Positions 3,118 to 48,440 of a stretch of DNA of 64,000 nucleotides are shown piece by piece. Origin of the DNA: Candidatus Omnitrophota bacterium (GTDB taxonomy: Bacteria > Omnitrophota > Gorgyraeia > Zapsychrales > Fredricksoniimonadaceae); contig JADFXH010000001.1 in assembly GCA_015233675.1 (NCBI GenBank), forward strand, positions 209,138-273,137. Direction: 5' to 3'. Positions within the stretch are counted from its first letter, which is position 1; every line of letters starts with the position of its first letter. Position numbers and translations under genes: made by a program. The notes under the pieces were generated by a model that was given only the letters and a program-made list of their open reading frames with translations, was not told the DNA's origin and searched no databases.

Positions 3118-3975
3118 CTATAGTGTACTAACCACAAACGCTTGAGTATAACGCCTGTCGAATTTCGCCCGGAGGCTTAAAGCGTGTTTTTGTGACTCGG
3201 CCAAAGCAAAAATCGAAGGACCACTGCCGGAGAAACAGACCCCTGCAGCTCCAGCGTCGAGCAATTTTCTCTTTAAATAAACAAAATCAGGCCTTAACGA
3301 CAAAATAGCAGGCTCCAGGTCATTAGACAAAGATCCTGCCAGTCGCACCAAATCCCCTTTTCTTAAAAAGGGAAGCAGAATATTAACATTATCCTTTTTA
3401 TTTGTCAAATTTAATTTAAGACGGGTAAAAACATCTGCCGTGTACATTTTAACCCGAGGAGTCACAAGCAGATGCCATAATTTAGTCTTGATATCCAATT
3501 GTCTTATAAGCTCTCCCCTTCCCGTACCCAACGCATAAGAAGTGTCATATAAAAAAAAGGTCACATCACTCCCTATGCGGGAGGCATAGCCAGCTAATTC
3601 TTGAGTCCCCAAACCCAATTGCCACAAACGGTTTAAACCTGATAAAACAGCAGCCGCATTGCTGGAACCCCCGGCAAGCCCCGCTGCTACAGGTATATTT
3701 TTTATAATATTTATATCTAACCCTTCTGAAATAGAAAAATCTTGACGCAAGAGAGCTGCAGCCTTAAAAACTAAATTCTTTGAAGACAACGGCACATGCG
3801 GATGGGCACAACGGATGCTTATTTTGTCACTTTTATTGCGCGTCAAAGTAATCGTGTCAGCCAGGCTGATCCGCTCAAATACGGTCCTAAGTTCATGAAA
3901 ACCGTCAGGACGCTTGCCCAAAACATCGAGAACCAGGTTTAATTTAGCCGGTGATTGAAGTGTGAGGCGATCCAT
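3118..3975 (-). CDS. ispE: 4-diphosphocytidyl-2-C-methyl-D-erythritol kinase
   Basis: GHMP kinase motif PVAAGLAGGSSNAAA. N-terminus LNLVLDVLGKRPDGFHEL is typical of IspE. Confidence 0.88.
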   Translation of the reverse strand: MDRLTLQSPAKLNLVLDVLGKRPDGFHELRTVFERISLADTITLTRNKSDKISIRCAHPHVPLSSKNLVFKAAALLRQDFSISEGLDINIIKNIPVAAGLAGGSSNAAAVLSGLNRLWQLGLGTQELAGYASRIGSDVTFFLYDTSYALGTGRGELIRQLDIKTKLWHLLVTPRVKMYTADVFTRLKLNLTNKKDNVNILLPFLRKGDLVRLAGSLSNDLEPAILSLRPDFVYLKRKLLDAGAAGVCFSGSGPSIFALAESQKHALSLRAKFDRRYTQAFVVSTL

Positions 3976-17135: not shown

Positions 17136-17965
17136 AATAGTGTCAGTTCTCCCTAACTGTATATTTATTAAATATTTATGGATTAATTGCCTTCCTTGGA
17201 CGACCCAGCCTGCGTTTTTTTGGTAGAATTGCTTCACGCTGTTTGCGAAAACTCTCTGACATATACTCACCGTTTTTTTCAAGGGTTTTTCGCACGGATT
17301 TTAGATGATCTCCATCGAGACGGCGACTCATCATTCCCTGGTACGCCAAACACCTCGCTGGTTCATCTGATCCTAATAGCTGGAACGCCGGATTCTTATT
17401 GCGATCGATCAATCTTGAATTTGCAGGATGAGCATTCAACCTGTAGCTCGAAAAGAGATAATCCCCTATATTGTTAACCATCATCGCTCGAAGAGGGTTC
17501 TGCTCAATATATTGCATGGCTGTAAAAAGATATTCATCATCACTTACTAAGGAAGAACTAAATCTCCCTTGCCATACATGCCCACTGCTTTTATATTTAA
17601 AGTTATACCAGCGATTATACGCCACAGTCAAGCTCTGCATGATTTTGCTGACCGTCCCCCACTCGCTTACCCGCAATAGAAGATGGACATGGTTTGTCAT
17701 CAAACAAAACGCATATAATTGAAACTTATATTTTTTTTTATAATGATAAAGGCAACGAAGATAATGCCGCTGATCAGCTGACTCTAAAAATATTGCCTGT
17801 CGATTATTCCCCCGGTTGATGATGTGATAAATTGCCCCTGGATAATGCAACCTATGATCTCGTCCCATAAACGCTCCTGCATTTTGCTATTCGCAGGGGA
17901 CGAATATAGTGAATTTAACATTAACTTATTGTACTTCAATAGGTTGGGGAGAACTGACACCTATT
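17136..17965. mobile_element. small IS200/RAYT-like element: Y1 transposase gene bounded by ~20-bp inverted repeats
   Basis: Left IR aatagTGTCAGTTCTCCCtaac (17136-17157). The reverse complement of 17943-17965 is aatagGTGTCAGTTCTCCCcaac. The element sits 15 nt upstream of the dsbD start codon. Confidence 0.7.
17176..17868 (-). CDS. IS200/IS605-family Y1 (HUH) transposase, REP-associated tyrosine transposase-like
   Basis: Motif GAIYHIINRGNNRQAIF and HUH motif HVHLL, with a downstream Tyr region. Confidence 0.8.
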   Translation of the reverse strand: MGRDHRLHYPGAIYHIINRGNNRQAIFLESADQRHYLRCLYHYKKKYKFQLYAFCLMTNHVHLLLRVSEWGTVSKIMQSLTVAYNRWYNFKYKSSGHVWQGRFSSSLVSDDEYLFTAMQYIEQNPLRAMMVNNIGDYLFSSYRLNAHPANSRLIDRNKNPAFQLLGSDEPARCLAYQGMMSRRLDGDHLKSVRKTLEKNGEYMSESFRKQREAILPKKRRLGRPRKAINP

Positions 17966-17980
17966 AGACACCTATTAAAA

Positions 17981-19606
17981 TTATTTATCAAAAACAGTAA
18001 GGGTAAATTGCAGAGGAACGTAACCCATACTGCTTTGAGTTGATTGAGGCTGGCCGATGCTCAATCGTTGCGCGTCAAATCCATGATTAACCAAGAACTC
18101 ATGGACCAATCGAGCTCTGTCCTGGGCCAGAGCACTTAAGGCCTCTTGGTCCGGCGGAGCATTTTCAATTAATTGGCGCTTAATTTCCTCGTCGAATTTT
18201 GTGTCTTTATACCTGCCAACCCCTTGCTTATACTTCTTAGCCAAAGCCCATAAGCCGCGGATACCATAACGGCGTTGATACAACAATTGATAAACCTTGC
18301 TATCTGAACGTCTGGATTCTTTCCTTAATTTTTCATAATCCTTTGTAAATACATCTGCCTGTATCGCCTTCCAGTCCACCTGCGGGTCATAACTCCCGTT
18401 AATTTCAAGACGAAGCTTGGGATGTTCAGCAATGCCCTTAATCAATGTGACTAATTTTTGCTGCTGGTTGACAGTTATAACAGACTTGCCAGGGGCAAAA
18501 CGGACATACCCTAATTCATCAGTACTACTATCCGAACCACCTAAGGCGGAGGCTAGAAATGAAAACGGTTTAGTAACAAGATTAAGAAAGAAATTACGAA
18601 TAACCTGGAAAATTAAATGAGTATATTCAAATTTTGGATCACTCATATCACCGGATGCAGGCAATGCAATTTTGATCTTTCCCTGTGGATCTTCCAGAAG
18701 AGCAACAGCAAGGCCAAACGGCAAATGCAAAGCATCCTTGCTTTCTACGCTATTGCCAAATTCAAATCGCTGGATCAAAACCCTATGGCTGGCAACAAGC
18801 TTATTAGCTCCTATGCGATACTCCATTGTCAAATCTAACTTGCCGCTCCTTAATTCACGCCCCGTATACTTGCCAACATAAGGCGTCAGAATTCCTAATG
18901 CGTAACCATTGAGACTAAATGTTGTTTCCATTTCCAATGGGTGGGATAAGAGTTTAATAATCGTTTCCATCGTAATCTTTCCCTTATCATCTAAATTAGC
19001 CTGAAATTTGATCTTAGCCTGGTCCTCTGGATTTGTTGTAACATTAGTAACATGTAATTCCATGGCCCCCAATATCGTTGAAAAATCAGGTTTAATGGTT
19101 TTATCGGTAAAATGGACCTGCCCTTGGCGCAAAACAATACTATCAATGATAACCTCCGGCAACAAAACAGGTTTGTTGATGCCGGCTGTTGATTGTTTGG
19201 GGCCTTTTGCTGGTTGAGCAGCTGCCTGGGGAACAAGTTCTAAAAGATTGATCTTATTACCGGGCAGTAACTCAACGTTGACCCGAAGCCCATCCAGCTC
19301 AAAAGTTTCCACGTGATAAATTTTCTTAAACAAATCAACAGGGCTCATTTTCACAAATAATTTGTCAAAGCCGGCCATAACCTGATTTGTATTGTCCAAA
19401 ATTTCAAAATTATTAAGCGTCAGTTGCAGTAAAAAAGGGTTAAGGCCTACTGAATGTATATGGACAGGGTGCTTAAGAAGCTTTGTCCCCTGGTTTGAAA
19501 TTGCCCAGGTAAGGACAAGCGGGATTACAATAAAACCTGTAATGGTATAAAACAGGAATATCCCTAAAATTGTTTTTAAAAAAATCCGTAAAATTTTTTG
19601 TAACAT
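17981..19606 (-). CDS. hypothetical membrane-anchored protein (AsmA/DUF748-like?)
   Basis: N-terminal TM helix and a large periplasmic region. Family assignment is uncertain. Confidence 0.4.
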   Translation of the reverse strand: MLQKILRIFLKTILGIFLFYTITGFIVIPLVLTWAISNQGTKLLKHPVHIHSVGLNPFLLQLTLNNFEILDNTNQVMAGFDKLFVKMSPVDLFKKIYHVETFELDGLRVNVELLPGNKINLLELVPQAAAQPAKGPKQSTAGINKPVLLPEVIIDSIVLRQGQVHFTDKTIKPDFSTILGAMELHVTNVTTNPEDQAKIKFQANLDDKGKITMETIIKLLSHPLEMETTFSLNGYALGILTPYVGKYTGRELRSGKLDLTMEYRIGANKLVASHRVLIQRFEFGNSVESKDALHLPFGLAVALLEDPQGKIKIALPASGDMSDPKFEYTHLIFQVIRNFFLNLVTKPFSFLASALGGSDSSTDELGYVRFAPGKSVITVNQQQKLVTLIKGIAEHPKLRLEINGSYDPQVDWKAIQADVFTKDYEKLRKESRRSDSKVYQLLYQRRYGIRGLWALAKKYKQGVGRYKDTKFDEEIKRQLIENAPPDQEALSALAQDRARLVHEFLVNHGFDAQRLSIGQPQSTQSSMGYVPLQFTLTVFDK

Positions 19607-19682: not shown

Positions 19683-20252
19683 TTATTTATTATGCCCTAA
19701 AATCCATAAAGGTTTTAACAAAAACTGAATACTCACCCCTCCCCAGTACCGGGAATCCCAGCTGTTTTTCACAAAATCACTCAATAAGATATATTTTCCT
19801 TTATTTAATAGCCCTGCTTTCTGGTCATAAAAGAGCTTCAATGCCCTTCCGGATGAATCTTTGCCCATTATAGGGTATGAGTGCCCATTTATTTTTAAAG
19901 ACCCGTTTTCCACAATAAAGTGGTCGCCGGGTATTCCTTGGACCACTTTAAGGACCAACACTGTACCGGTCTCGCAACTACCCTGTGCCAAATAAGCCCG
20001 GTCGATGCCATACTGAGAGATTTCCCTGGTCAAACAAGTGGCTGCGTAATCTCCACGTTTAGGAGCTCCTTCGATTTTCATATAGATGCCGTATGGTAAA
20101 GAGTGAGTAAAGATATTAAAATAAAAAATATGAGTAAAATCTAAAATAATTAATGCGGATAAAATCAAAAGCAGCCATTGCATCGTTCTAGTCATAGCGG
20201 GAAAAATAATTAAAGAAGCCTGCACTGTAAATCCAAGCTTAGGTATTCGCAC
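19683..20252 (-). CDS. S26-family signal peptidase, TraF-like
   Basis: Box D LKVVQGIPGDHF (Lys general base), box E SDFVKNSWDSRYWG, and a candidate Ser nucleophile in HSLPYG. Only 189 aa. Confidence 0.7.
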   Translation of the reverse strand: MRIPKLGFTVQASLIIFPAMTRTMQWLLLILSALIILDFTHIFYFNIFTHSLPYGIYMKIEGAPKRGDYAATCLTREISQYGIDRAYLAQGSCETGTVLVLKVVQGIPGDHFIVENGSLKINGHSYPIMGKDSSGRALKLFYDQKAGLLNKGKYILLSDFVKNSWDSRYWGGVSIQFLLKPLWILGHNK

Positions 20253-20955
20253 AAATTCCGATATAATTTACTGAATTGGAAATATAGGCCCTTCGGCAGT
20301 CACCATGGGTATACGCGGACACCACCCGGTTAGTAATATGAGCCTCAATATACTGGTCATTTTCGCAACCGCCCTTGCCGGAACTGTCATAAGTTTCGGC
20401 TTGGGAAGAAGATATGAGCCACTGGCATTGAGCATCTGTGTATCCGGAGGGCAAAGGAATAGTCCCCCTGTCCTCTATGGTGCCGGTGACAACAAATACC
20501 GGCGGCGTTGTCGGCCCACCGGGAACGCTTATGGTACTCGTCACTGTAGTTCCAAAGACATTGGTTAAAGGCAATTTGGACACGACAATATTCTGGGCCC
20601 CGTCATTCACAGTCGTGGAAACTGTCAAGAAGGCCGATGTCGAGCTCATGGTGTAGTTGTGATTAAATGGATTTAAAGCATTCCAACTTGACGGGAGATA
20701 ACCTGATGATTCAAGGTCATTAGGCGGAGTATTTATTGAGCTTGGCCAGCCAGCTCCTTTTTGCAAATAATAACTGCGGGCCGCATCCTGAATGTTTTGA
20801 ATTTCCAGTGCTGTCTTTGTTCCTGCCTTTTCCAGGTAAGCACGGTACATCGAAGGAACGGCAAAAGTTAACAACACTGTCATAATAATTACAACTATGG
20901 TTAACTCCAATAAACTGAAGGCCTTTTTATTATTTATACAAATATAGAAGGTCAT
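20239..20955 (-). CDS. type IV pilin-like / pseudopilin (minor pilin candidate)
   Basis: Class III signal peptide KKA|FSLLELTIVVIIM with Glu at +5. 246 aa. Confidence 0.7.
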   Translation of the reverse strand: MTFYICINNKKAFSLLELTIVVIIMTVLLTFAVPSMYRAYLEKAGTKTALEIQNIQDAARSYYLQKGAGWPSSINTPPNDLESSGYLPSSWNALNPFNHNYTMSSTSAFLTVSTTVNDGAQNIVVSKLPLTNVFGTTVTSTISVPGGPTTPPVFVVTGTIEDRGTIPLPSGYTDAQCQWLISSSQAETYDSSGKGGCENDQYIEAHITNRVVSAYTHGDCRRAYISNSVNYIGICANT

Positions 20956-21352
20956 AAATAAGTCTTCCGGAAAATTCATTCGGCATGCTTCTTGTGATGC
21001 TGATCTGGTCCCCTGTTGCTCCGGGTGTAACTATTAAAAAGCTCCCCTCATTGGGGTCTATTAAAATCCCTTTGGGAATTGTCGTTGAGACAGTGAACAT
21101 ATTATTCTTAAACGCAAGCTGATAGCTATATCCAAACGGATTGCTTTTATCCGCCTGTGTCATATACGTATCCCCTAATGATGAATTATAGTAATCCATC
21201 GCCGCTTCTGCGATTGAGCCCATTTCCCTGACTGTTGCCTGAAACCTGGCACGATCAATGAATTTTGCGCCATTACTGATAATCGTAGTTAATAAAACTC
21301 CGATGATAACCATGACAAGCGTCAACTCCAGCAACGTAAAGGCATTTTTCAT
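20930..21352 (-). CDS. type IV pilin-like / pseudopilin
   Basis: Prepilin N-terminus MKNA|FTLLELTLVMVIIGVL. Confidence 0.75.
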   Translation of the reverse strand: MKNAFTLLELTLVMVIIGVLLTTIISNGAKFIDRARFQATVREMGSIAEAAMDYYNSSLGDTYMTQADKSNPFGYSYQLAFKNNMFTVSTTIPKGILIDPNEGSFLIVTPGATGDQISITRSMPNEFSGRLIYDLLYLYK

Positions 21353-21807
21353 TGCAAGGTTGTTGTCCATGTCTGGCTTGATGCCGTATAACTTGGCGGA
21401 AGTGCCGATATTTTAGTTAATGCTGTTGTTAATTTTGCAGCGGGTATAGCCGGCACTGCCGTTAACCCGATATCAAGCATTTGTGAATTGTTGGCATCAA
21501 CGTTAACGGTATAATCCCCGTTCCATGGGTTGGTTGTTATCGCAGTAAATTGCGCGGGCAAATACCCGGCGGCCAACTTGGCAAAAGTTATACCCGTATA
21601 AACACCCCCGTTATCGCTGGCCCACTCAACACTTGCAGTCTGGATGGCCTTGATACTAGCAATAGCATTTGCGATACGGCTGCTATCGGTTGCGGTTTGC
21701 CCTAACGGTACGACAGCCAGTAAAATAACACTGATGATCACCAGCACGACCACCATTTCGATAACAGTAAAACCTTTCCTGATTTTTAATTTTCTAATCA
21801 TGTCCAT
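21349..21807 (-). CDS. type IV pilin-like / pseudopilin (GspG/PilA-like)
   Basis: Prepilin N-terminus MIRKLKIRKG|FTVIEMVVVLVII. Confidence 0.8.
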   Translation of the reverse strand: MDMIRKLKIRKGFTVIEMVVVLVIISVILLAVVPLGQTATDSSRIANAIASIKAIQTASVEWASDNGGVYTGITFAKLAAGYLPAQFTAITTNPWNGDYTVNVDANNSQMLDIGLTAVPAIPAAKLTTALTKISALPPSYTASSQTWTTTLQ

Positions 21808-21833
21808 TTCTTTTATCCCCTTTTTTAATTGGT

Positions 21834-23033
21834 TTATTTGAATACCCCTTCACCCATCCGGTTTATATTTGTATAGATCGGCAAAATAAAAGAACACAGG
21901 ATCGTAAGCAAAAATAACGCAGCCACAACTAGCAATGAAGGCTCGATGATCGCGATAAGCGCCGCAATTGATTCCTTGCTCTTAATATCGTAATACTTAT
22001 AAATACGTTCCAGATATTGCGGTAAAAAACCACTTACCTGGCCTTTACTCAAATTCTGGCAAACAAACGGCGGGAAGAATGGATCTTGTTTAAAGGCATC
22101 ACCTAAAGAGATCCCTTTAAATATCCTCTCCCGGATTAAAATCAGTCTTCCTGTAATGCAGGTATTGCTGGCTTGATGGATATTAGTGATTGTTTGAACA
22201 ATGTTCACGCCGCTTTTTTGATACACATATAAATTCAAGAACACATGGGACAACTCGATATTTTTAATCAGGTCTCCCACCAACGGTATACTCAATATAA
22301 CTTCCATCAACCTTTCACTATAATTATGCCAAAGGTGTTTTATCAGGAAGACTGCCGTCACTAAACATGAAATAACCACCCACCAGTATTCTTTTATAAA
22401 ACCGGCGTATCCGACCAGAATCATAGCGGATAAACTGTTTCCGGAACCCGACGGCAAAAAAGCTTTCAGCAAGGGGACCAGTTTGATGGAGATAAATATC
22501 GATAATCCTGTCAATAAACAAAAAATCACTCCCGGATAGATCAACGCCCTGGTAATTTTCTTTTGATTTTCATCCTTGAAATTATAATATTGAGCTAAAA
22601 GGTCTGATAATTCCGGGATGTTACCGGTCTTCTCTGCCGCGCTTAGCGATACACAGACAATCTTGGAAAAAATCTTTGTATTTTCAAATGACTCTTCCAG
22701 AGACCGCCCGTCATTAATAAAATTACATATTTTTTTAAGGGCTTCTTTTAAAACAGGATTTGAGCTTGTTTCATTTAATGTGTTAATGGCTTCATTGACT
22801 GATAAACCGCATTTTTGCATATCGGCGAAATCCTTGAAAAATACGGACAGCACCGATGATGATAATCTGCGGTTTTGAAATATACTCTTTATAAACGCCG
22901 GATAATCAGGAGTAATATTCAGAATTTCAAGGCCGTAAACCAAGGCCTGATTCTTAGCATCTTCCAGACTCCCGTCGAAGGTTTGAGTAATTTCAGATCT
23001 CTTGGCCGTCAAAGCTTCAATTTTCCAATACAT
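21834..23033 (-). CDS. type II secretion / type IV pilus platform protein (GspF/PilC family)
   Basis: Two T2SS-F repeats, three TM segments and ~400-aa length. Confidence 0.85.
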   Translation of the reverse strand: MYWKIEALTAKRSEITQTFDGSLEDAKNQALVYGLEILNITPDYPAFIKSIFQNRRLSSSVLSVFFKDFADMQKCGLSVNEAINTLNETSSNPVLKEALKKICNFINDGRSLEESFENTKIFSKIVCVSLSAAEKTGNIPELSDLLAQYYNFKDENQKKITRALIYPGVIFCLLTGLSIFISIKLVPLLKAFLPSGSGNSLSAMILVGYAGFIKEYWWVVISCLVTAVFLIKHLWHNYSERLMEVILSIPLVGDLIKNIELSHVFLNLYVYQKSGVNIVQTITNIHQASNTCITGRLILIRERIFKGISLGDAFKQDPFFPPFVCQNLSKGQVSGFLPQYLERIYKYYDIKSKESIAALIAIIEPSLLVVAALFLLTILCSFILPIYTNINRMGEGVFK

Positions 23034-23037
23034 AAAT

Positions 23038-24669
23038 TCATCCTAAAACCCTGACGGCCTCTTCAATTGAGGTATCGCCCCTTAATATAAGCGACTTCAT
23101 GTCATCCATCATCGTTTTATACGTCCCTCGTCTTCGTAACAGGGAATAGATTTCCCCTAAAGCATTTTTAGCAATAAGTTCTTTAATTTCAGGATCAATA
23201 AACAATACTTCAGCTACTACTGTTCTTCCCAAATAACCATTTCGGCATCGTTCGCAGCCATTGGCCCGATATAGCATTTGAATTCCTTGGCTTAAATACT
23301 TTGCTTTATAGGGCTCAAAGGTGTCTTGCGCCCCTGCAAACGAACTCTTGCAAAAGTGACAAAGTTTTCTAACCAGCCTTTGAGAAACTACGGCCACCAA
23401 ACAACTGGAGATGTTTACTGCATCCACGCCCAAATCTTTTAACCTTAAAATTGCTGAAATCGGGTCGTTGGTATGTAAGGTTGAGAAAATTTGAAGCCCG
23501 GTATTGGCTGCGCGTAAAGATTCATCCGCTGTCTCTTTGTCCCGGATCTCTCCGATCAAAATCACGTCAGGGTCTTGCCGCAGGAATGCTCGGATAGCCA
23601 TGCCGAATGTCAGATTTTGTGACTGATCAACCTGAACTTGAGACATTAACGAATGGGTGATCTCAACGGGATCCTCAATGGTAAGAATTTTCTTAGAAAT
23701 TGATTTAATCTGGTTTAATACCGCTGACAGGGTCGTTGATTTTCCGCTGCCGGTGGGGCCGGTGACTAAAATCAAACCGTGAGGGACAATGATGGCCTGA
23801 TTGATTAATTTATGGTTATGCCCTGAATAACCCAGACTTTCCAAGGGGATGGATGCGCGGGCCTTGTCCAGAAGACGTAAAACAATGCCCGGTCCATGAA
23901 TAGTCGGGATTTGTGAAAACCTGACATCAACCGTCCTTGCCATTTCTTTAAATTCATGATCAAATCTACCATCCTGAATAGTGTAATCACAGGGATTGCC
24001 CTTACATTTAGTCAAAATTATATTAGCCAGCTTAGAGATATATTCCGGCTTAAGACAGTTGATAGGGGTTAATAATCCATCAATTCTAAACCGGATGTCA
24101 GTGGTATTACCGGTAGGCTCTATATGAATATCCGTGCTGCGCGTGATAATCGCCAGATTGATAATGGCATTAAACCACAAAGCTAATGAATCAATTCCTT
24201 TTAATTTTAATATCTCAATTTCAGAAAGTAATTTTTGCCTATCCTTCTCCAAAATTATCAAATCCAAAGCATTCCTGATATCATTCTCTGTGCCTATGTA
24301 AAAATTCACTCCCTTATTACCAAAATTATTCTTAAGAAAGTCTGTAACTTCAACGTTATCTATAAACGAAACAACAAATGACGGGATAGGCCCGTTTTTT
24401 AACGGAAAAATCTGGTGCTCACAGAAATAACCCAACCCCACCCGTTCAATTGCCTCATAGTCAGGCATATAATCATTTTTAAAAAACTTCCAGCCGATCT
24501 GTTTTGAAAGACACACCGCTAATTCTTCATCATTGATAAATCCATGATGCTTTAAAATAGACCCTAAGCGATTTTTAGGATTTGTTCTCTTATACTCAAG
24601 GCAGTGGTCAAGCTCTTCTTGAGTTAAAAGTTTACCTTCAATTAATAATTCACCGATCTTTGCTAACAT
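23038..24669 (-). CDS. type II/IV secretion ATPase (GspE/PilB family)
   Basis: N-terminal GSPII_E_N-like domain, Walker A GPTGSGKST, and a C-terminal CxxC...CxxC zinc motif. Confidence 0.9.
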   Translation of the reverse strand: MLAKIGELLIEGKLLTQEELDHCLEYKRTNPKNRLGSILKHHGFINDEELAVCLSKQIGWKFFKNDYMPDYEAIERVGLGYFCEHQIFPLKNGPIPSFVVSFIDNVEVTDFLKNNFGNKGVNFYIGTENDIRNALDLIILEKDRQKLLSEIEILKLKGIDSLALWFNAIINLAIITRSTDIHIEPTGNTTDIRFRIDGLLTPINCLKPEYISKLANIILTKCKGNPCDYTIQDGRFDHEFKEMARTVDVRFSQIPTIHGPGIVLRLLDKARASIPLESLGYSGHNHKLINQAIIVPHGLILVTGPTGSGKSTTLSAVLNQIKSISKKILTIEDPVEITHSLMSQVQVDQSQNLTFGMAIRAFLRQDPDVILIGEIRDKETADESLRAANTGLQIFSTLHTNDPISAILRLKDLGVDAVNISSCLVAVVSQRLVRKLCHFCKSSFAGAQDTFEPYKAKYLSQGIQMLYRANGCERCRNGYLGRTVVAEVLFIDPEIKELIAKNALGEIYSLLRRRGTYKTMMDDMKSLILRGDTSIEEAVRVLG

Positions 24670-24672
24670 GCT

Positions 24673-25323
24673 TTATTCCGGTTTATAGTCGATGGTCTTA
24701 GTCAATTCCTGCGGTGCGCTAAAATGCAGGGTCACACCGGTGTCGGAAATAGACAAAACTTGAATGCTATCAGTTGGACTGGATTTCTCTTTGACCTGAA
24801 AACTAACGCCTGCGATGGAGAGGATCGCCTCTTTCTTGACATTATCCCCTCCAATATACTCTACTTTAATTTCAGGCATATTTTTTTGGCCATCGACGGA
24901 TGGATCTTTAAAGTTTCCCCTATTCTCACTTTTTAATTTATTGATCTGGGCAAGAGCTTTTTCCTGTTCAAGCTCTAGATTGGTTTGTTCAAGTTTATTC
25001 TTTAAATATTTCGTCTGTTTTTGCTCTTGGCGATCACGATCAAGCTGTTGTTGGATCGCGGCATCATCTTCTTTGGGAGTGCCTGACTCAACTCCTCCTT
25101 TAAGCCCTGTTTCTGCGCTTGGATTTACAGCAACAGGCCTTGCTGAAATAACTTTCATTGACTCCATTTCAGATGCGGCCCCAAGACTTTCCGGTGCCGG
25201 TAAATTTGTCCTCGGGCTGAGTCTCCAAAGGGTCACAATAATTGCAAAAATGCCAAACAAAAAAGGCACTAATACTTTCTTTGAAAATAACTTTTTAAAG
25301 TCCATAGATTTCCCCTTTAACAA
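24673..25323 (-). CDS. hypothetical bitopic protein, PilP/GspC-like candidate
   Basis: N-terminal TM, a coiled coil and a C-terminal beta-rich domain. Assigned only from its position inside the pilus operon. Confidence 0.4.
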   Translation of the reverse strand: MLKGKSMDFKKLFSKKVLVPFLFGIFAIIVTLWRLSPRTNLPAPESLGAASEMESMKVISARPVAVNPSAETGLKGGVESGTPKEDDAAIQQQLDRDRQEQKQTKYLKNKLEQTNLELEQEKALAQINKLKSENRGNFKDPSVDGQKNMPEIKVEYIGGDNVKKEAILSIAGVSFQVKEKSSPTDSIQVLSISDTGVTLHFSAPQELTKTIDYKPE

Positions 25324-25789
25324 TTAAATTATTTTTATCTTTGCTTATTTCTGAGACCATAAAATCAGTGTTCTTCTCTAATAAATGAATATCGTCTAAC
25401 ACGGCCCCCATATCCGTCTCTTTTGAAAACTTATCTACCACGATCTTAATTTTTAATCCCCTGACTCCCTCATACTCCGTATCCACATAATGATCTGAAA
25501 TGTCATCCGCATCCTTAAACCCCTCTAACTGGACATTCATGTCGGTCCCGCTGCAGCTTTCAAGCATCCTGATCTGGCTCATGACCAAACCATATTCAAT
25601 CGACAGAAGCACAGGCCCGCGTTTAACTAAAGATTCCCGATCATTGATTTTTTGTTTCATATCCAGATTGTTTGCCTGCATCTGTACGGCTTCATATCTC
25701 AGTTTATCTACCCGTGCTTTAGCAGACATCCCAAAATTAATCAAAACCATCGATGCAATGAATGAAGTAAAAATGATGGTTTTATTCAT
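25295..25789 (-). CDS. PilO-like pilus assembly protein
   Basis: N-terminal TM, a coiled coil and a periplasmic domain, positioned between pilM/N and the ATPase. Confidence 0.5.
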   Translation of the reverse strand: MNKTIIFTSFIASMVLINFGMSAKARVDKLRYEAVQMQANNLDMKQKINDRESLVKRGPVLLSIEYGLVMSQIRMLESCSGTDMNVQLEGFKDADDISDHYVDTEYEGVRGLKIKIVVDKFSKETDMGAVLDDIHLLEKNTDFMVSEISKDKNNLIVKGEIYGL

Positions 25790-26973
25790 AGGGTTACTCT
25801 CAAATGTTTTCCCGGCAGGTTATTCACAAAGACATCTTTAATATCCGCTGTTTTTAAAATTCTTACCTTAGGAATGGGATCGAATGCTTTCCCATTTTCA
25901 GAAGACAATGAGACTTCTAAGTCCCATTTATCCGATCTAATAAATTTGAATGAATCCACTTCGTAGCTCGAAGGGACCAAATCAAGGACAGCAAGATAGG
26001 ATACCCCATAATTAAGGGATTTATGCTTTCTCAAGTCTTCCCTGTACGTCTCTCTATCTAATGATTTTAGCTTTTCATCCAATCGTTCATTGTCCTGTCT
26101 GGCTAAAGCACGTTGATTGCTCACTAGCCCTAACTCGAGCTTATTAAACAAAAAATAAAATAACCCTACTGCCGCCACACATAAGGAAATCCCTGTCGTC
26201 ATGGCATTCTTTTTTAATTCAATTTCCCTGCGTTTTTTAATAATTTCTTCAGGCAATCTGAACTTGACTGGGGTATTTGTTTCTTTTAAACCTTCTAATG
26301 CAGGGCAGGCAACATCTAAGCATTCCACCGGCAGGTTTTCTTTATTTTTAGAGATCTCAGAGGCTAATACATGATTATTGACCAATATTATAAAATCTGT
26401 ACTCTTCCTGCTTAAATACTCTTCGTTTTTCTTAAAAAAATCGATCTGGGAGCGCTTGATTTCAGGTAAAATATCTTCACCATTGTTTACTATAACTCTT
26501 GTCCGGCTGAATTTTAAACCATCAAAGACAGTTAATAATCTCTCCCTCCCCCAGTCATCCACAAAGACTACAGTTTTATTCAGATAGATTTTTTTATTAA
26601 CCAGAGTATTACGCAAAGCAATGCCATAGGGAATAAAAGACCTGACTTTTGAGGGTGGTATAAACGAGTAAACTTCTCTCACCTTTTGTTCTTTGATCCC
26701 CATGACCTGAAAAAGATTATTATCTATCCTTTCATCCTGGATAATATAGGCTTCATGCTGGTAAAGTTCCTTGAACTTACGCACCAGGATACTGTCTTTC
26801 TTCTCTACCGGACTTTCCACAGCGGCCGCGATGAGGACATCAACATCAACCACACAGAGATTCGCTTCTTCGACAGACCCTAAAATATCTTTATAGTCAT
26901 TGCCTTTATCTATACGATGCACACTGGTCCCGTCGCTTACCATGATCTCGTTGTTAAATAATAAATAGTTCAT
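25786..26973 (-). CDS. PilM-PilN fusion-like assembly protein
   Basis: ~240-aa cytoplasmic actin-like region, then a TM segment (ISLCVAAVGLFYFLF) and a coiled coil as in PilN. Confidence 0.55.
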   Translation of the reverse strand: MNYLLFNNEIMVSDGTSVHRIDKGNDYKDILGSVEEANLCVVDVDVLIAAAVESPVEKKDSILVRKFKELYQHEAYIIQDERIDNNLFQVMGIKEQKVREVYSFIPPSKVRSFIPYGIALRNTLVNKKIYLNKTVVFVDDWGRERLLTVFDGLKFSRTRVIVNNGEDILPEIKRSQIDFFKKNEEYLSRKSTDFIILVNNHVLASEISKNKENLPVECLDVACPALEGLKETNTPVKFRLPEEIIKKRREIELKKNAMTTGISLCVAAVGLFYFLFNKLELGLVSNQRALARQDNERLDEKLKSLDRETYREDLRKHKSLNYGVSYLAVLDLVPSSYEVDSFKFIRSDKWDLEVSLSSENGKAFDPIPKVRILKTADIKDVFVNNLPGKHLRVTL

Positions 26974-26987
26974 TCTTTAGTCTTTGT

Positions 26988-28835
26988 TTAAATATTCCTG
27001 ATGACGCTTTTAGGAGTAATAATGATGACCAATTCTGTCTTTTTGCTTGATTTAACTTTATACTCAAAGGCATTTCCTAAAAATGGTATTTTATCCAGGT
27101 AAGGAATCCCTTCGGTTGAATTATTCCTGATGGAGCTTATAAGTCCTCCCAAGATCAAGGTTTTTTCGGGCTCGACTCCAACATTCGTCGTAATGCTTTT
27201 CGTTGACACCTGCGGCTCCTGGATGGTCAACCCGTTACCCACCGCTACATTAGTCATAGAATCAAGGGTGTTTAGCGCCGCAGAAATATTCAACACGGTT
27301 TTATTTTCTTCGATCTTTGCTTCCAATCTCATTGTTAAACCATCCGACACTTGAGATGTCGTAACATTGGATTGCGTAATGTTATTCCCTATCGTCTGAC
27401 CTGTCCCGGAAATATAAGGGACACTGGTCACCTCCTGTATAACGCATGGGAACATGTTAGATACCGTAATCGATGGCCTGCTGACGACATTTACATCCCC
27501 CATTGAATCAAGCGCTTTAAGAACCATTGACACCCCGCCGTTGGTCGCCCCACTGGCAGAATCCGGACCGGCGGCTGATAAAGTCAGTAATTGTCCGCTT
27601 AAGAATCCGGCCGAAGAAAAGTTTGTTGCCGCCGTGATATTGTTGAGACCCTTGAGGCTTTTGGCTATGGTATTCCAATCAATTCCTGTTTCGTGGTTCC
27701 TTGATAAGGTCACTTCTATGATCTGGATCTCGAAGCTTTGCTGTCTGCCTAAATTCTCATTAATGGTTGAGACCAACTCCCCTACCTTATCCAGGACCGC
27801 GGGCTTATCAGTCACAACGATTGAGCCGCTGACCTTATTAAGAGAATAGCTGCCGGTATTGGGCGTTATTATTGATTTAACGTTGTTTTCTAAATCAGCC
27901 CATAAGGAAAGTTTGGGCGAGGTATTTTCGTAATAGATCTTTGTCCCTACCTTAATATCCTGGTTTTGCTGGTTATTTGTTGAAATGCTATTGTTATTAT
28001 TACTATCCACGAAGGATGCATTGGAGGTCTCATCAGTAAATGATTGGTCCACCGCCGGCATGTTTATATTAAAAATCCTGGTTTCTGTTTCTGTAATGAT
28101 TAAATCCTCCCGGGAGACTTTAAATCCATATCCAAACTTATATAAAAGACTTTTTAATGCCCTCCACACCTCAATATTTTCAAGGTTGATGGATGTTTTT
28201 TGAGAATCAATGTCCGGGGTTGTGATAATGTTGTATCGCGTAACCTGAGAAATTGTTGAAAGGTAAATTTTAAGCGGCAGGTCATTGCCTTTGAGGGTAA
28301 TCTTAAGGTTTAACTCCGGCGGCAAATCCGGGGACGATTTTCTACTAACCTGATCCTCCACATTTATTGCTTTCATTAACGCTGGTTTTGCTGTTTGTCT
28401 TATTGCCCCTTTCTTTTCAATGACGCTTTCGGACAGAATATCCATTTTGGCGGCTATTGTTTTATCTTCATTTTTGTCATCAGAAGCCGCTATCCTGTGT
28501 ATAATAAATTTGGTATAAAAATCATCATTAGCTACAAATCGCAGCACGTAACTTTCTCCGGAAATACCAGTTACTGTCATTTCAGCGGCTTCTAAATCCG
28601 TAGGCATTAATTCCAGCATATTCGGTTTATTGTTATTTCTTTGGACAACATAGGTGTCTGCTCCGAAACCTCTGATAACACCATTTATGGACTCGGGGAA
28701 AATGACGGTTGTGACATGATCTTTTTTAACATGCACGTATATTTCTTTACCGTCGTATACAAAATCTTTAATTTCGGCGCGCGCGATTGGTAAAATGCTT
28801 GAGCAAAAAATAATGCTTAATAATAGCTTTTTCAT
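26988..28835 (-). CDS. secretin (PilQ/GspD family)
   Basis: Signal peptide and the conserved C-terminal secretin domain GIPYLDKIPFLGNAF...TELVIIITPKSV. Confidence 0.88.
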   Translation of the reverse strand: MKKLLLSIIFCSSILPIARAEIKDFVYDGKEIYVHVKKDHVTTVIFPESINGVIRGFGADTYVVQRNNNKPNMLELMPTDLEAAEMTVTGISGESYVLRFVANDDFYTKFIIHRIAASDDKNEDKTIAAKMDILSESVIEKKGAIRQTAKPALMKAINVEDQVSRKSSPDLPPELNLKITLKGNDLPLKIYLSTISQVTRYNIITTPDIDSQKTSINLENIEVWRALKSLLYKFGYGFKVSREDLIITETETRIFNINMPAVDQSFTDETSNASFVDSNNNNSISTNNQQNQDIKVGTKIYYENTSPKLSLWADLENNVKSIITPNTGSYSLNKVSGSIVVTDKPAVLDKVGELVSTINENLGRQQSFEIQIIEVTLSRNHETGIDWNTIAKSLKGLNNITAATNFSSAGFLSGQLLTLSAAGPDSASGATNGGVSMVLKALDSMGDVNVVSRPSITVSNMFPCVIQEVTSVPYISGTGQTIGNNITQSNVTTSQVSDGLTMRLEAKIEENKTVLNISAALNTLDSMTNVAVGNGLTIQEPQVSTKSITTNVGVEPEKTLILGGLISSIRNNSTEGIPYLDKIPFLGNAFEYKVKSSKKTELVIIITPKSVIRNI

Positions 28836-29068
28836 AATTTACCTCGTAAAATTAATTTGAGATTTGAAACATTAATAGTATCGCATAATTTTGATTATTT
28901 GTCAATATTTCTAGCAAATTAAACAATAATCATAACTTATTAATTACCAATATATTGCATGATTATTACAAATAAAAATAAAAAATAAATTTAATTGTTT
29001 GACGAAATAACAATATTTCTCACAACAACACGCTACCTCTATTTATCTCAAAGCATGCTTGACTGGTC

Positions 29069-29097
29069 AAAAAAAGCCAAATATACTATCGAATAGG
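29069..29097 (+). promoter_or_regulatory. sigma70-like promoter for the major pilin
   Basis: TTGACT, a 17-nt spacer, then TATACT, ~45 nt upstream of the pilin ATG. Confidence 0.4.
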
Positions 29098-29141
29098 ATG
29101 GATGAAACTAAAATCCGGAAGGGTTTTTGACAAATCGACAA

Positions 29142-29468
29142 ATGAATATAAAATTACGGAAAGCTCGCCAACATAACAATGGCTTCACGCTTTTAGAAAT
29201 TATCGTCGTTTTGATCATTATTGGCATATTAGTCGCCATTGCCGTGCCTAATATCTATGGCTGGATTGACCGTTCGGCCGCATCAGAGGGAAACTCTTCT
29301 TTGAGGCTCCTTTCTGATCAGATGGATGCATGCATGCTTACAACAAAGACTGTTGATCAATGCGCACAAAATCTTACTGCGGGAGGGACTGGTTTAGGGC
29401 CAAATGTTACTGTAGAAACTCAAGTTAGAGGAGGGAACTATACTATAGCCCAGTATGGGGGGCACTGA
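29142..29468 (+). CDS. type IV major pilin, N-terminal two-thirds (frame 1)
   Basis: Leader MNIKLRKARQHNNG|FTLLEIIVVLIIIGILVAIAVP. Terminates at TGA 29466 immediately after a G6 tract. Confidence 0.8.
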   Translation: MNIKLRKARQHNNGFTLLEIIVVLIIIGILVAIAVPNIYGWIDRSAASEGNSSLRLLSDQMDACMLTTKTVDQCAQNLTAGGTGLGPNVTVETQVRGGNYTIAQYGGH

Positions 29469-29718
29469 TCTTTCAAATAAATTTAAATATATTATCTATT
29501 CTTATACTAATAATAATACTCATGTAAGTCAATATGCTACACTTGCATTCTGGGACCTTGATGCTAACCCTCGACAAAATCTTTCAGACACGACGATCAA
29601 TTGTATAAATAGCGTAACAATAACAATGACCAACCAGTATGGGATGTTAGGAACGTGCAGCACATCGGTCGGAAAACGCATTCAAGCTGGCGATGGCATT
29701 TTCGCAGGGCTGTCTTAA
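29142..29718 (+). pseudogene. major pilin gene split by a +1 frameshift at a G6 homopolymer (29457-29462)
   Basis: ORF 29455..29718 encodes a pilin-like C-terminus (C-x18-C, then GKRIQAGDGIFAGLS). Deleting one G fuses both ORFs into a ~192-aa pilin. Confidence 0.65.
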
Positions 29719-47627: not shown

Positions 47628-48440
47628 TCAGTCAAGGGAAAATAAAGACTCAAGAAAGATTAACCCTAAAACAATAAAAATAAAAACAGCCACGACTAAA
47701 ATTCCGTGAAAATAATTGTCAGCGTATGCCGCGCCATAATTCAATGCTAATCCGAAAGCTAAGACCACTCGAAAAATATTGGCAGTAATAACTAATGAAA
47801 TCAGAAAAATAAAAACCGCCCCCCTTTTTAACCAGGTTGTTTTATGGAAAAAAACAAAAAGCGCCGCAAAGACAATCACCAAACCTAATGAATAAAGCGC
47901 CACCAAATCGCCTTGTAAAGAAAGCTTATAAAAATAATCACTTAAAATACCCCCTTTTACAGTACACCCTCCCTGAACAGCGCTTAAAACAAAAAAACTC
48001 CCATGAACAATCAAAGCATTAATTTTAACTGTTACAGTATTCACCCAAGACTCTGAAAATTTGGAAGCAACTATGAAAAAAAATGAAATTAACGATAAAA
48101 TTAATACTACAAAACCCGCACTGGCATTGGCTGGAATGGGGTTCTTGCTTATAATCCCATCGACATTTTCCTCTTTAATATCCGAGTCAGCCAGCTCTGA
48201 GGAGGATGTTTCTATCTTTTCAATGATTGGAGGCGCATCACTGGCAGGCATTGAAAACGGAGGGTTTAAATCTTCCCCGACAGGGGCCGGCTTATTTTCC
48301 GGGGTCTTAGCCTTAAGCTCAGCCTCCCTCACAGCAGCTTCCATTTTCAGCCTGCGCTGTTCAGTAATTTCTATAATCTGCTTGGTTGTATAGACGTGTC
48401 GAGACTCAAAAGAAACCGTCTTTTTTCTTTTAGATAACAT
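47628..48440 (-). CDS. hypothetical membrane protein with a Pro-rich cytoplasmic N-terminus
   Basis: ~120-aa soluble N-terminus followed by 4-5 TM helices. Confidence 0.45.
   Translation of the reverse strand: MLSKRKKTVSFESRHVYTTKQIIEITEQRRLKMEAAVREAELKAKTPENKPAPVGEDLNPPFSMPASDAPPIIEKIETSSSELADSDIKEENVDGIISKNPIPANASAGFVVLILSLISFFFIVASKFSESWVNTVTVKINALIVHGSFFVLSAVQGGCTVKGGILSDYFYKLSLQGDLVALYSLGLVIVFAALFVFFHKTTWLKRGAVFIFLISLVITANIFRVVLAFGLALNYGAAYADNYFHGILVVAVFIFIVLGLIFLESLFSLD

Follow-up and report, generated by a model that had tools for sequence, protein, structure and literature searches.

Gene content of the locus

We analyzed a 64-kb stretch from the metagenome-assembled genome of an uncultured Candidatus Omnitrophota bacterium (GenBank assembly GCA_015233675.1, contig JADFXH010000001.1, positions 209,138 to 273,137; hereafter the window, numbered from its first nucleotide) that carries a type IV filament (T4F) operon on its minus strand. 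Ten uninterrupted open reading frames (ORFs) lie at 19683-28835 (-), and the first nine overlap or are separated by gaps of at most 26 nt. These nine tightly packed genes encode a secretin, proteins of 395, 164 and 216 aa, an ATPase, a platform protein and three prepilins, and are followed by a gene for an S26 peptidase. Family searches returned Secretin with Secretin_N_2, T2SSE with an MshEN-type N-terminus, T2SSF, three N_methyl prepilins and Peptidase_S26. The original prediction, drawn from the DNA letters and their translations, had listed a minus-strand set of secretin, ATPase, platform, prepilin and S26 genes; this list of parts was essentially right, with every ORF intact and the families confirmed by Pfam and NCBIfam. 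The 395-aa, 216-aa and S26 proteins are identical to NCBI records from a 321-kb contig, which for the first two bear HQL12_ locus tags.

The generic T4F model calls for a clustered ATPase, platform and major pilin, with the secretin and prepilin peptidase as accessory components (PMC6668835). T2SSE, T2SSF, N_methyl pilins and a secretin stand here in one operon, and the pilins bear class III signals, which places the locus in the T4F superfamily. Upstream of the secretin start by 42 nt lies a possible promoter (28877..28905, -) with TTGACA, a 17-nt spacer, GATACT and an extended -10 TG, agreeing with the consensus at 10 of 12 positions. Promoter-type sites in the region do not in total exceed the number expected from shuffled sequence, so this one is a candidate only.

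Secretin, ATPase and platform

The secretin (26988..28835, -; 615 aa), the presumptive outer-membrane channel, was recognized by Pfam Secretin (1e-29) and Secretin_N_2, as had been claimed. It has a Sec-type signal peptide ending ARA/E (the slash marks cleavage, here and below), and its orthologues are 62-81% identical. The best NCBIfam models were MshL (175 bits, cutoff 250) and the type IVb (T4b) PilN (142 bits), both under cutoff. Against PDB sequences BfpB ranked first, before PilQ and GspD, and among plasmid proteins the closest were those of the PilN family. Compared directly, it scored 97.6 bits to IncI PilN and 40.8 to GspD.

The ATPase (23038..24669, -; 543 aa; T2SSE 4.6e-101) is an extension ATPase of the PilB/MshE/GspE type whose N-terminus carries an MshEN motif, known for binding cyclic di-GMP (c-di-GMP). 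This 24-residue motif, RLGSILKHHGFINDEELAVCLSKQ, occupies residues 34-57 in textbook form, and the MshE-related c-di-GMP model NF053729 scored over its cutoff (41 vs 38 bits). Walker A lies at residue 304, and there are two CxxC motifs. Over its full length it aligned to the NCBIfam PilB model (344 bits) and to PilB and PilF structures, and over its core to GspE (359 bits with the NCBIfam model). Among PDB proteins PilF (290 bits), GspE (281) and PilB (254-264) scored far above BfpD (112); IncI PilQ reached 97 bits. The ATPase core is 42% identical to a plasmid GspE. The inner-membrane platform (21834..23033, -; 399 aa; T2SSF 8.6e-40, two repeats) is of the GspF/PilC type, with 167 bits to NCBIfam GspF and, in pairwise comparison, 85 bits to GspF vs 22 to IncI PilR. 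The PilB/GspE and GspF models thus agree with the proposed identities of both proteins, whose class placement is a ranking of scores rather than a tree. The window holds a single T2SSE-family ATPase in all, and no second T2SSE or PilT ATPase was found in its 64 kb; PilT was likewise absent from about 100 related loci.

GspL-like and GspC/PilP-like proteins

The second gene (25786..26973, -) encodes a 395-aa protein that we assign as a GspL-like assembly protein from its AlphaFold2 (AF2) fold and Foldseek matches. Sequence methods say little about it: Pfam, NCBIfam and PDB searches with the single sequence or a profile were empty, neither T2SSL nor GspL_C matched, hhalign gave no similarity to Escherichia coli GspL or IncI PilO, and tblastn gave no match among plasmids. 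A profile search of 1.84 billion representative proteins gathered only 141 clusters. The structure prediction proposed with the original prediction was run on a 39-sequence alignment and gave a model with a predicted local distance difference test (pLDDT) score of 87. It consists of an actin-like cytoplasmic domain (residues ~1-235), a transmembrane (TM) and coiled-coil helix (241-317) and a periplasmic alpha/beta domain (322-394). In Foldseek searches of the PDB the cytoplasmic domain of GspL/EpsL came first (4pht, 1yf5; TM-score 0.61-0.65, normalized to the target), and PilM (5eou) was also matched. The family is new at the sequence level and, going by this model, has a known fold.

The same protein had been described as an unusual PilM-PilN fusion. 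Both halves are indeed present in one ORF, but the combination is the GspL/PulL architecture, which is standard in type II secretion systems (T2SS) (PMC10191384). The ORF has 116 homologues, the named ones all from Omnitrophota; nearly all are 390-400 aa long and lack Pfam domains, and a frameshift artefact as its source is ruled out. A canonical pilD plus separate pilM and pilN genes, with this ORF being a pilM followed by a frameshifted pilN, had been named as what would refute the fusion; no split pilM/pilN was found.

The 164-aa protein (25295..25789, -) is bitopic and is presumed to be the partner of the GspL-like protein. Its gene always directly follows the 395-aa gene with a 4-nt overlap, and the protein has an N-terminal hydrophobic segment. 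It has no Pfam or NCBIfam family and no PDB sequence match, and hhalign against E. coli GspM and IncI PilO was empty.

The 216-aa protein (24673..25323, -; 210 aa in the NCBI record, which starts at Met7) likewise had no match in Pfam, NCBIfam or PDB sequence searches, and no operon protein matched the T2SSL, T2SSM or T2SSC families. In the AF2 model of the 210-aa form, a TM helix (12-29) and a disordered linker lead to a helix (77-130) with a coiled coil of about 50 residues and a six-strand domain (146-206) with pLDDT >90. The seven best Foldseek matches of this C-terminal domain in the PDB were PilP and the homology region (HR) of GspC, with 3oss_C at a TM-score of 0.78 (normalized to the target) and a root-mean-square deviation of 1.9 A; hhalign aligned it weakly to the C-terminus of IncI PilP (E=0.0034). 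The earlier description of the protein as PilP-like is borne out by the predicted structure, and the model supports GspC as the closest likeness, given the membrane anchor. In one chromosomal orthologue (L102, 1740-2738; related loci are designated L003, L006 and so on) the counterparts of the 164-aa and 216-aa proteins are called as one 332-aa product beside a GspL-like protein of 428 aa, which may be a natural fusion or an artefact of gene calling or assembly.

Prepilins

In all loci the first pilin gene after the platform gene is the counterpart of that at 21349..21807 (-), which encodes a prepilin of 152 aa (N_methyl 3.7e-06, weak Bundlin match) with the leader MDMIRKLKIRKG/FTVIE and no cysteines. 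Its orthologues match PF08805 (PilS) and PF05307 (Bundlin), and this in-operon pilin is likely the major subunit. The next gene (20930..21370, -) encodes a 146-aa minor prepilin (TIGR02532 over cutoff) with the leader MDNNLAMKNA/FTLLE, whose orthologues have G at -1, a variable +1 residue (F, V, M, T) and a preserved E+5. The third (20239..20979, -) encodes a 246-aa minor prepilin (N_methyl over cutoff) with a leader ending NNKKA/FSLLE and a variable, Cys-rich C-terminal domain. Orthologues of the latter range from 166 to 355 aa with only the first 135-160 residues conserved, and several carry a phage-tail Collar domain. The window's copy is 51% identical over 228 aa to that of the L006 operon, which is linked to a type IV secretion system (T4SS), and is closer to it than to most chromosomal orthologues. 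A conserved N-terminus with a variable head is typical of adhesive tip pilins, and the 246-aa protein is likely a tip or adhesin subunit.

Class III signals, with G or A at -1 and E at +5, were found in all three pilins and their orthologues, which settles the doubt raised earlier about whether the three genes had such signals. Two of the three had been singled out for an unusual Ala(-1). The leaders are as described (G/FTVIE, A/FTLLE, A/FSLLE), but Ala(-1) is no anomaly because class III leaders 'invariably end with Gly or Ala' (PMC10191384); the orthologues mostly have Gly, with Ala occurring sporadically at other positions and in other genomes.

A further prepilin gene lies divergently upstream of the secretin (29142..29718, +; N_methyl 2.5e-08; phmmer to GspG E=4.8e-11) and is GspG/T4a-like. 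It is split into two ORFs (29127-29468 and 29455-29718, +) at a G6 run (29457-29462), where deletion of one G restores a single 191-aa prepilin ORF with two Cys pairs. The frameshift may be an assembly error, a pseudogene or phase variation by slipped-strand mispairing. Orthologous loci have no counterpart upstream of the secretin, where Nramp, cupredoxin or other genes are found instead. Although it had been proposed as the major pilin, this frameshifted gene, absent from the orthologous loci, does not encode the major pilin of this machine.

Conservation and conjugative relatives

Over 40 Omnitrophota contigs show strict synteny of the nine genes, and in them the operon occupies one and the same place on the chromosome, flanked by UDP-glucose dehydrogenase and DsbD. 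Because this site is shared by species whose 395-aa proteins have diverged to 45-77% identity, the arrangement indicates long vertical inheritance at one chromosomal position.

Two independent, distant copies of the operon, with 395-aa proteins 36-38% identical to that of the window, have a different setting. Their order is response regulator, secretin, a 138-145-aa gene, the 395-, 164- and ~200-aa genes, ATPase, platform and three pilins, and in both a gene for a VirD4-type coupling protein directly follows the third pilin. The L006 block is moreover preceded by VirB8, VirB9, VirB10 and VirB11. Because these distant copies sit in T4SS modules, the window's minor-pilin head resembles that of L006, and TraF-type peptidases occur in conjugative contexts (below), the evidence points to a conjugative-element origin of the pilus block, analogous to the IncI/R64 thin pilus.

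The extra 138-145-aa gene stands between the secretin and GspL-like genes (L006 9575-9991; P0108 contig 3471-3908), is absent from the chromosomal copies, and may encode a pilotin-like accessory. At L003 (818-6167) a second cluster resembling type IVa pilus (T4aP) or T2SS loci, with a secretin, an MshEN-type ATPase, a platform and two pilins, lies immediately upstream of the distant operon copy, with no A24 peptidase nearby.

Comparison with known type IV filament systems

Judged on family scores and gene order, the system is a mosaic nearest the group formed by mannose-sensitive hemagglutinin (MSH) pili, T4b pili and T2SS: the motor resembles PilB/MshE/GspE, the connectors resemble GspL and GspC, and the secretin, pilins and gene order resemble those of T4b and MSH pili. 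The original options of a T4aP, a T2SS or a competence-like (Com) pseudopilus all fit poorly. For a T4aP, separate PilM, PilN, PilO and PilP and a PilT would be expected; here the PilM and PilN parts are fused, and the one T2SSE-family ATPase in the 64 kb leaves no PilT.

A close parallel is the thin pilus of IncI1/R64, a type IVb system encoded as pilN-pilO-pilP-pilQ-pilR-pilS-...-pilV. Both are single operons with, in the same order, a secretin, a bitopic protein, a PilP-type HR protein, an ATPase, a platform, a pilin and a large variable minor pilin; the secretin is nearest the PilN family among plasmid proteins, the C-terminus of the 216-aa protein aligns to PilP, and the major-pilin orthologues match PilS. 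As with IncI1/R64 and related T4b pili borne on integrative conjugative elements (ICEs), mobile copies of this operon sit in conjugative T4SS modules. There are also differences. The ATPase and platform are far from PilQ and PilR (97 and 22 bits) and near GspE/PilB and GspF, and the operon lacks a PilU prepilin peptidase, a PilT-type transglycosylase and a shufflon, while it has the additional 164-aa protein. The leaders are short, often with Phe at +1, and the 395-aa protein shows no similarity to IncI PilO.

Measured as a T4b pilus (T4bP), the locus has the single-locus layout, T4b-type major pilin, large minor pilin and BfpB/PilN-type secretin. It lacks an in-locus prepilin peptidase, with no A24 in the locus or its flanks, and its ATPase falls outside the BfpD/TcpT/PilQ clade, to judge by score ranking (BfpD 112 and PilQ 97 vs 254-290 bits for PilF, GspE and PilB).

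With the MSH pilus it shares the best secretin model (MshL, albeit below cutoff), the MshE/MshEN-type c-di-GMP motif of the ATPase, and the absence of an in-locus peptidase and retraction ATPase (PMC6668835). Unlike MSH, which has seven pilins, it has three, and MshM/MshN-like genes and the MshB/A/C/D/O/P/Q pilin set are missing: the locus has ten genes, the secretin comes first, MshL scores 175 against a 250-bit cutoff, and the window holds no other pilus genes. This comparison was made through family models, not MSH reference proteins.

Features in common with T2SS (GspC-M) are the GspL-type fusion of actin-like, TM and periplasmic parts in one protein (AF2, Foldseek), the membrane-anchored GspC-like HR protein, the GspE-like ATPase core, the GspF-like platform and the lack of PilT. 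T2SS differ in having five pseudopilins, among them a GspK lacking Glu5, whereas the three pilins here all have Glu5 and gave no significant GspH/I/J/K matches. Further differences are the MshEN-type N-terminus of the ATPase, the T4b-like pilins and the secretin: although an HR-type domain is present as in GspC, GspD gives the secretin a lower score than do MshL, PilN and BfpB.

Prepilin peptidase and the TraF-like S26 peptidase

No A24 prepilin peptidase was detected in the 64-kb window or in the related loci scanned (about 100, with flanks up to 10 kb). Since the GxGD-type motif scan was too strict (IncI PilU reads GTGDLW), we also ran phmmer at maximum sensitivity with two A24 references, again with a negative result. 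The claim that the 64 kb contain neither an A24 peptidase nor a retraction ATPase stands, and no canonical pilD, the finding that had been named as telling against it, turned up in the window or the loci scanned. Contrary to what had been stated, the locus is not complete, because it has no prepilin peptidase gene. Such an absence is common: prepilin peptidases are shared among several systems, and none is encoded in any MSH locus (PMC6668835). Every class of Omnitrophota commonly has T4aP and Tad systems (PMC10066038), and a literature search on pilD or prepilin peptidases of Omnitrophota gave nothing useful. By analogy, we infer that an A24 prepilin peptidase is encoded elsewhere in the genome. 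The label of unusual composition, which had been based on the fusion, Ala(-1) and the missing A24, is therefore not upheld: all three are ordinary or, in the case of Ala(-1), not conserved.

The gene after the third pilin (19683..20252, -; Peptidase_S26 5.5e-12) encodes a TraF-like S26 Ser/Lys peptidase of 169-189 aa. The best model was TIGR02771 (TraF; RP4/Ti type) at 76.5 bits, under the trusted cutoff of 100.25, and the protein is about 33% identical to plasmid TraF proteins. Like TraF, it has ~170 aa, an N-terminal TM segment and the Ser/Lys dyad in a small, N-terminally anchored protein; S51 (in THSLPYG), K102 (in VLKxIKGxPGD) and box E (NSWDSRYWGP) are invariant across 20 homologues. C73 and C93 are also invariant in the family, whose gene adjoins DsbD and thioredoxin-like genes in most genomes; the two residues suggest a periplasmic disulfide. 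The true start is probably Met21 (ATG at 20192), because the ~140 close homologues are 165-175 aa long, and the gene would then not overlap the last pilin gene.

The peptidase had been counted as the final gene of the operon. A gene is present at this 3' position, but the occurrence of this TraF-type neighbour away from the operon speaks against core membership. Adjacency at this phylogenetic depth carries little weight, since synteny extends over the entire stretch between UDP-glucose dehydrogenase and DsbD/SpoU. S26 identity between genomes tracks that of DsbD (64-74%), not that of the pilus genes. In L058, L050 and L065 the S26-DUF748-DsbD series is kept although pilus genes are missing upstream of it (for 9.2 kb in L058), and the distant operon copies (L003, L006, P0108 contig) are without S26. 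Between the last pilin gene and S26, L007, L011 and L016 have inserts, either toxin-antitoxin genes or a response regulator on the reverse strand. S26 as a dedicated pilus gene on grounds of adjacency is thus ruled out: S26 and the operon each occur without the other, and insertions can lie between them. Close S26 homologues (61-68% identical) adjoin TrbC/VirB2, VirB3 and VirB4 in L072, L054 and L034, in ten loci a homologue adjoins a MobA/VirD2 relaxase gene, and others carry VirD4. The genomic association of TraF with a P-type T4SS and its TrbC/VirB2 pilin is thus seen for these homologues but not for the window's S26, which has the type IV pilus operon on one side and housekeeping genes on the other. 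Taken together, the sequence comparisons indicate a TraF-family homologue that neighbours the operon and is probably not a core part of it.

It is very unlikely that S26 substitutes for the prepilin peptidase, because it occurs in contexts separate from the pilus and because cleavage by S26 enzymes takes place at the outer membrane surface facing away from the cytoplasm, opposite to the cytoplasmic face where class III leaders are cut (PMC10191384). A literature search turned up no earlier case of a type IV pilus operon with an S26 peptidase.

Both S26 junctions are insertion hot spots (L007 16808-17170, L011 16876-17540, L016 7776-8408, L018 10621-11201), with inserts that vary by genome between PIN/VapC-type toxin-antitoxin pairs and a reverse-strand response regulator. 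Directly after S26 (17981-19606, -), in the window as in L050, L058 and L065, stands a gene for a 541-aa DUF748/AsmA-like protein with an OmpA-like C-terminus, whether or not the pilus operon is present, and S26-DUF748-DsbD appears to form a conserved unit of the backbone. Both the TraF-like S26 gene and the mobile-type operons are repeatedly found with a single-domain response regulator (L072 10599-11003; L034 8261-8644; L054 3964-4329 and 4893-5303; L006 6213-6599; P0108 contig 70-369), and phmmer with the L072 regulator gave 16 matches in 12 related loci, which suggests a possible regulatory link.

Proposed model and alternatives

We consider it likely that the locus encodes an intact T4F machine specific to one clade of Omnitrophota, and that the block is a chromosomally fixed derivative of the accessory thin pilus of a conjugative element, probably serving attachment. 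The matches and models above show which families or folds the secretin, ATPase, platform, GspL-like and GspC/PilP-like proteins belong to, and that the pilins bear class III signals; how the parts work together is proposed as follows. The three prepilins would enter the inner membrane with ordinary class III signals, and their leaders would be removed at its cytoplasmic face by the A24 peptidase encoded elsewhere. A hexameric ATPase of the PilB/MshE type, probably activated by c-di-GMP through MshEN, would power polymerization on the GspF-type platform. The actin-like cytoplasmic domain of the GspL-like protein may hold the ATPase, its periplasmic domain may pair with the 164-aa protein, and the membrane-anchored 216-aa protein would couple the inner-membrane complex to the MshL/PilN-type secretin. 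The 152-aa pilin would form the fibre, and the adhesive tip is likely the 246-aa pilin, whose Cys-rich head is variable. S26 would act as a periplasmic peptidase of the TraF family, of the kind that matures conjugative T4SS pilins, and not as a prepilin peptidase.

Several points weigh against this account. Its conjugative ancestry is argued from two mobile-type operon copies and the TraF contexts, not from a rooted phylogeny, and in the poorly resolved neighbour-joining tree of S26 some mobile-element copies branch basally to the chromosomal copies and others fall within them. S26 stands intact 3' of the pilus operon in every chromosomal copy, at 59-75% identity, while no T4SS or TrbC-type pilin gene is visible in the 64-kb window; it may have a pilus-related role. 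The A24 searches were negative in the window and in the loci scanned, and the presence of that peptidase in trans is an assumption. The 164-aa protein is presumed to be a GspM/PilO analogue from its position and topology alone. Finally, the machine may serve a T2SS-like secretion function, because the major pilin has no Cys and the ATPase is closest to GspE/PilB.

In the form of a true type II secretion system, the three pilins would form a pseudopilus in the periplasm, and this would drive folded proteins out by way of the secretin. We judge this unlikely, even though the GspL-like and anchored GspC-like components, the plasmid-GspE-like ATPase core, the GspF-like platform and the absence of a retraction ATPase agree with it, and the major pilin lacks Cys as GspG does. 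Three pilins with E+5 throughout supply neither a GspH/I/J/K set nor a GspK-like cap; the major-pilin orthologues resemble the T4b pilins PilS and Bundlin; the head of the third pilin is large, variable and adhesin-like, sometimes with the phage-tail Collar domain; the ATPase N-terminus and the secretin are of MshEN and MshL/PilN/BfpB rather than GspD type; and mobile operon copies are coupled to T4SS genes.

It is quite improbable, in turn, that the locus belongs to a still-active ICE whose pilus stabilizes mating pairs in the service of a T4SS with its genes in another part of the genome. One mobile-type operon copy does lie between VirB8-11 and VirD4, a TraF homologue is retained, and the minor-pilin head is common to the T4SS-linked L006 copy. 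Yet no VirB, relaxase, coupling-protein or integrase gene was found in the 64-kb window, whose other genes are housekeeping genes, and the fixed chromosomal position across diverged species speaks for long vertical inheritance. Least probable of all is S26 as a dedicated filament component, replacing A24 or carrying out another maturation step on a pilus protein: its conservation 3' of the operon in every chromosomal copy, the intact dyad, the lack of any A24 in the loci scanned and of a visible T4SS pilin substrate in the window are outweighed by the opposite face of cleavage, the fully canonical leaders with no AxA site after the hydrophobic segment, the TrbC/VirB3/VirB4 and relaxase neighbours, the separate occurrence of S26 and operon, the inserts between them, and a conservation that follows the backbone.

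A chromosomally fixed thin pilus in this phylum would have several consequences. T4bP have been reported only in Proteobacteria (PMC10191384), and T4b-like, conjugation-associated pili only there; here the same logic, a single-operon pilus that has a variable tip pilin and in mobile copies is physically coupled to T4SS genes, would appear in a candidate phylum of ultra-small, probably host-dependent bacteria. What goes beyond the ordinary is the set of unrecognized alignment-protein families, and a pilus and TraF tied to conjugative elements in a phylum without described T4b-like pili or conjugative coupling. The 395-, 164- and 216-aa families, of which two have known folds, escape sequence searches of Pfam, NCBIfam and the PDB and would improve T4F detection models; conversely, fused PilM/N, Ala(-1) and an absent in-locus A24 should not be counted as anomalies. 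If the chromosomal copy is an attachment organelle, host or partner specificity in Omnitrophota may be determined by the variable head domain. A bolder proposal, to which we give very little credence, is that an ultra-small Omnitrophota clade fixed a conjugation-derived T4b-like thin pilus together with TraF, and that strong purifying selection kept TraF for a role in the filament, such as periplasmic processing of a pilin or machine component; if true, this would be the first type IV filament system to depend on an S26 peptidase.

Other features of the window

The rest of the window is ordinary chromosome, with genes for PRPP synthetase, GlmU-like, IspE-like and HisG proteins, DsbD, AhpC, a SpoU methylase, efflux pumps, a porin and others, and one tRNA; no marked compositional island was found in the 64 kb. 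A gene for an IS200-like Y1 (RAYT-type) transposase (17176-17868, -) lies between the DUF748 gene and DsbD, with no counterpart there in the related loci examined. A 270-aa ORF (47628-48440, -) scores 26.3 bits with the exosortase EpsH family, against a cutoff of 25.7; this weak match is a hint of PEP-CTERM/exosortase sorting in this genome.

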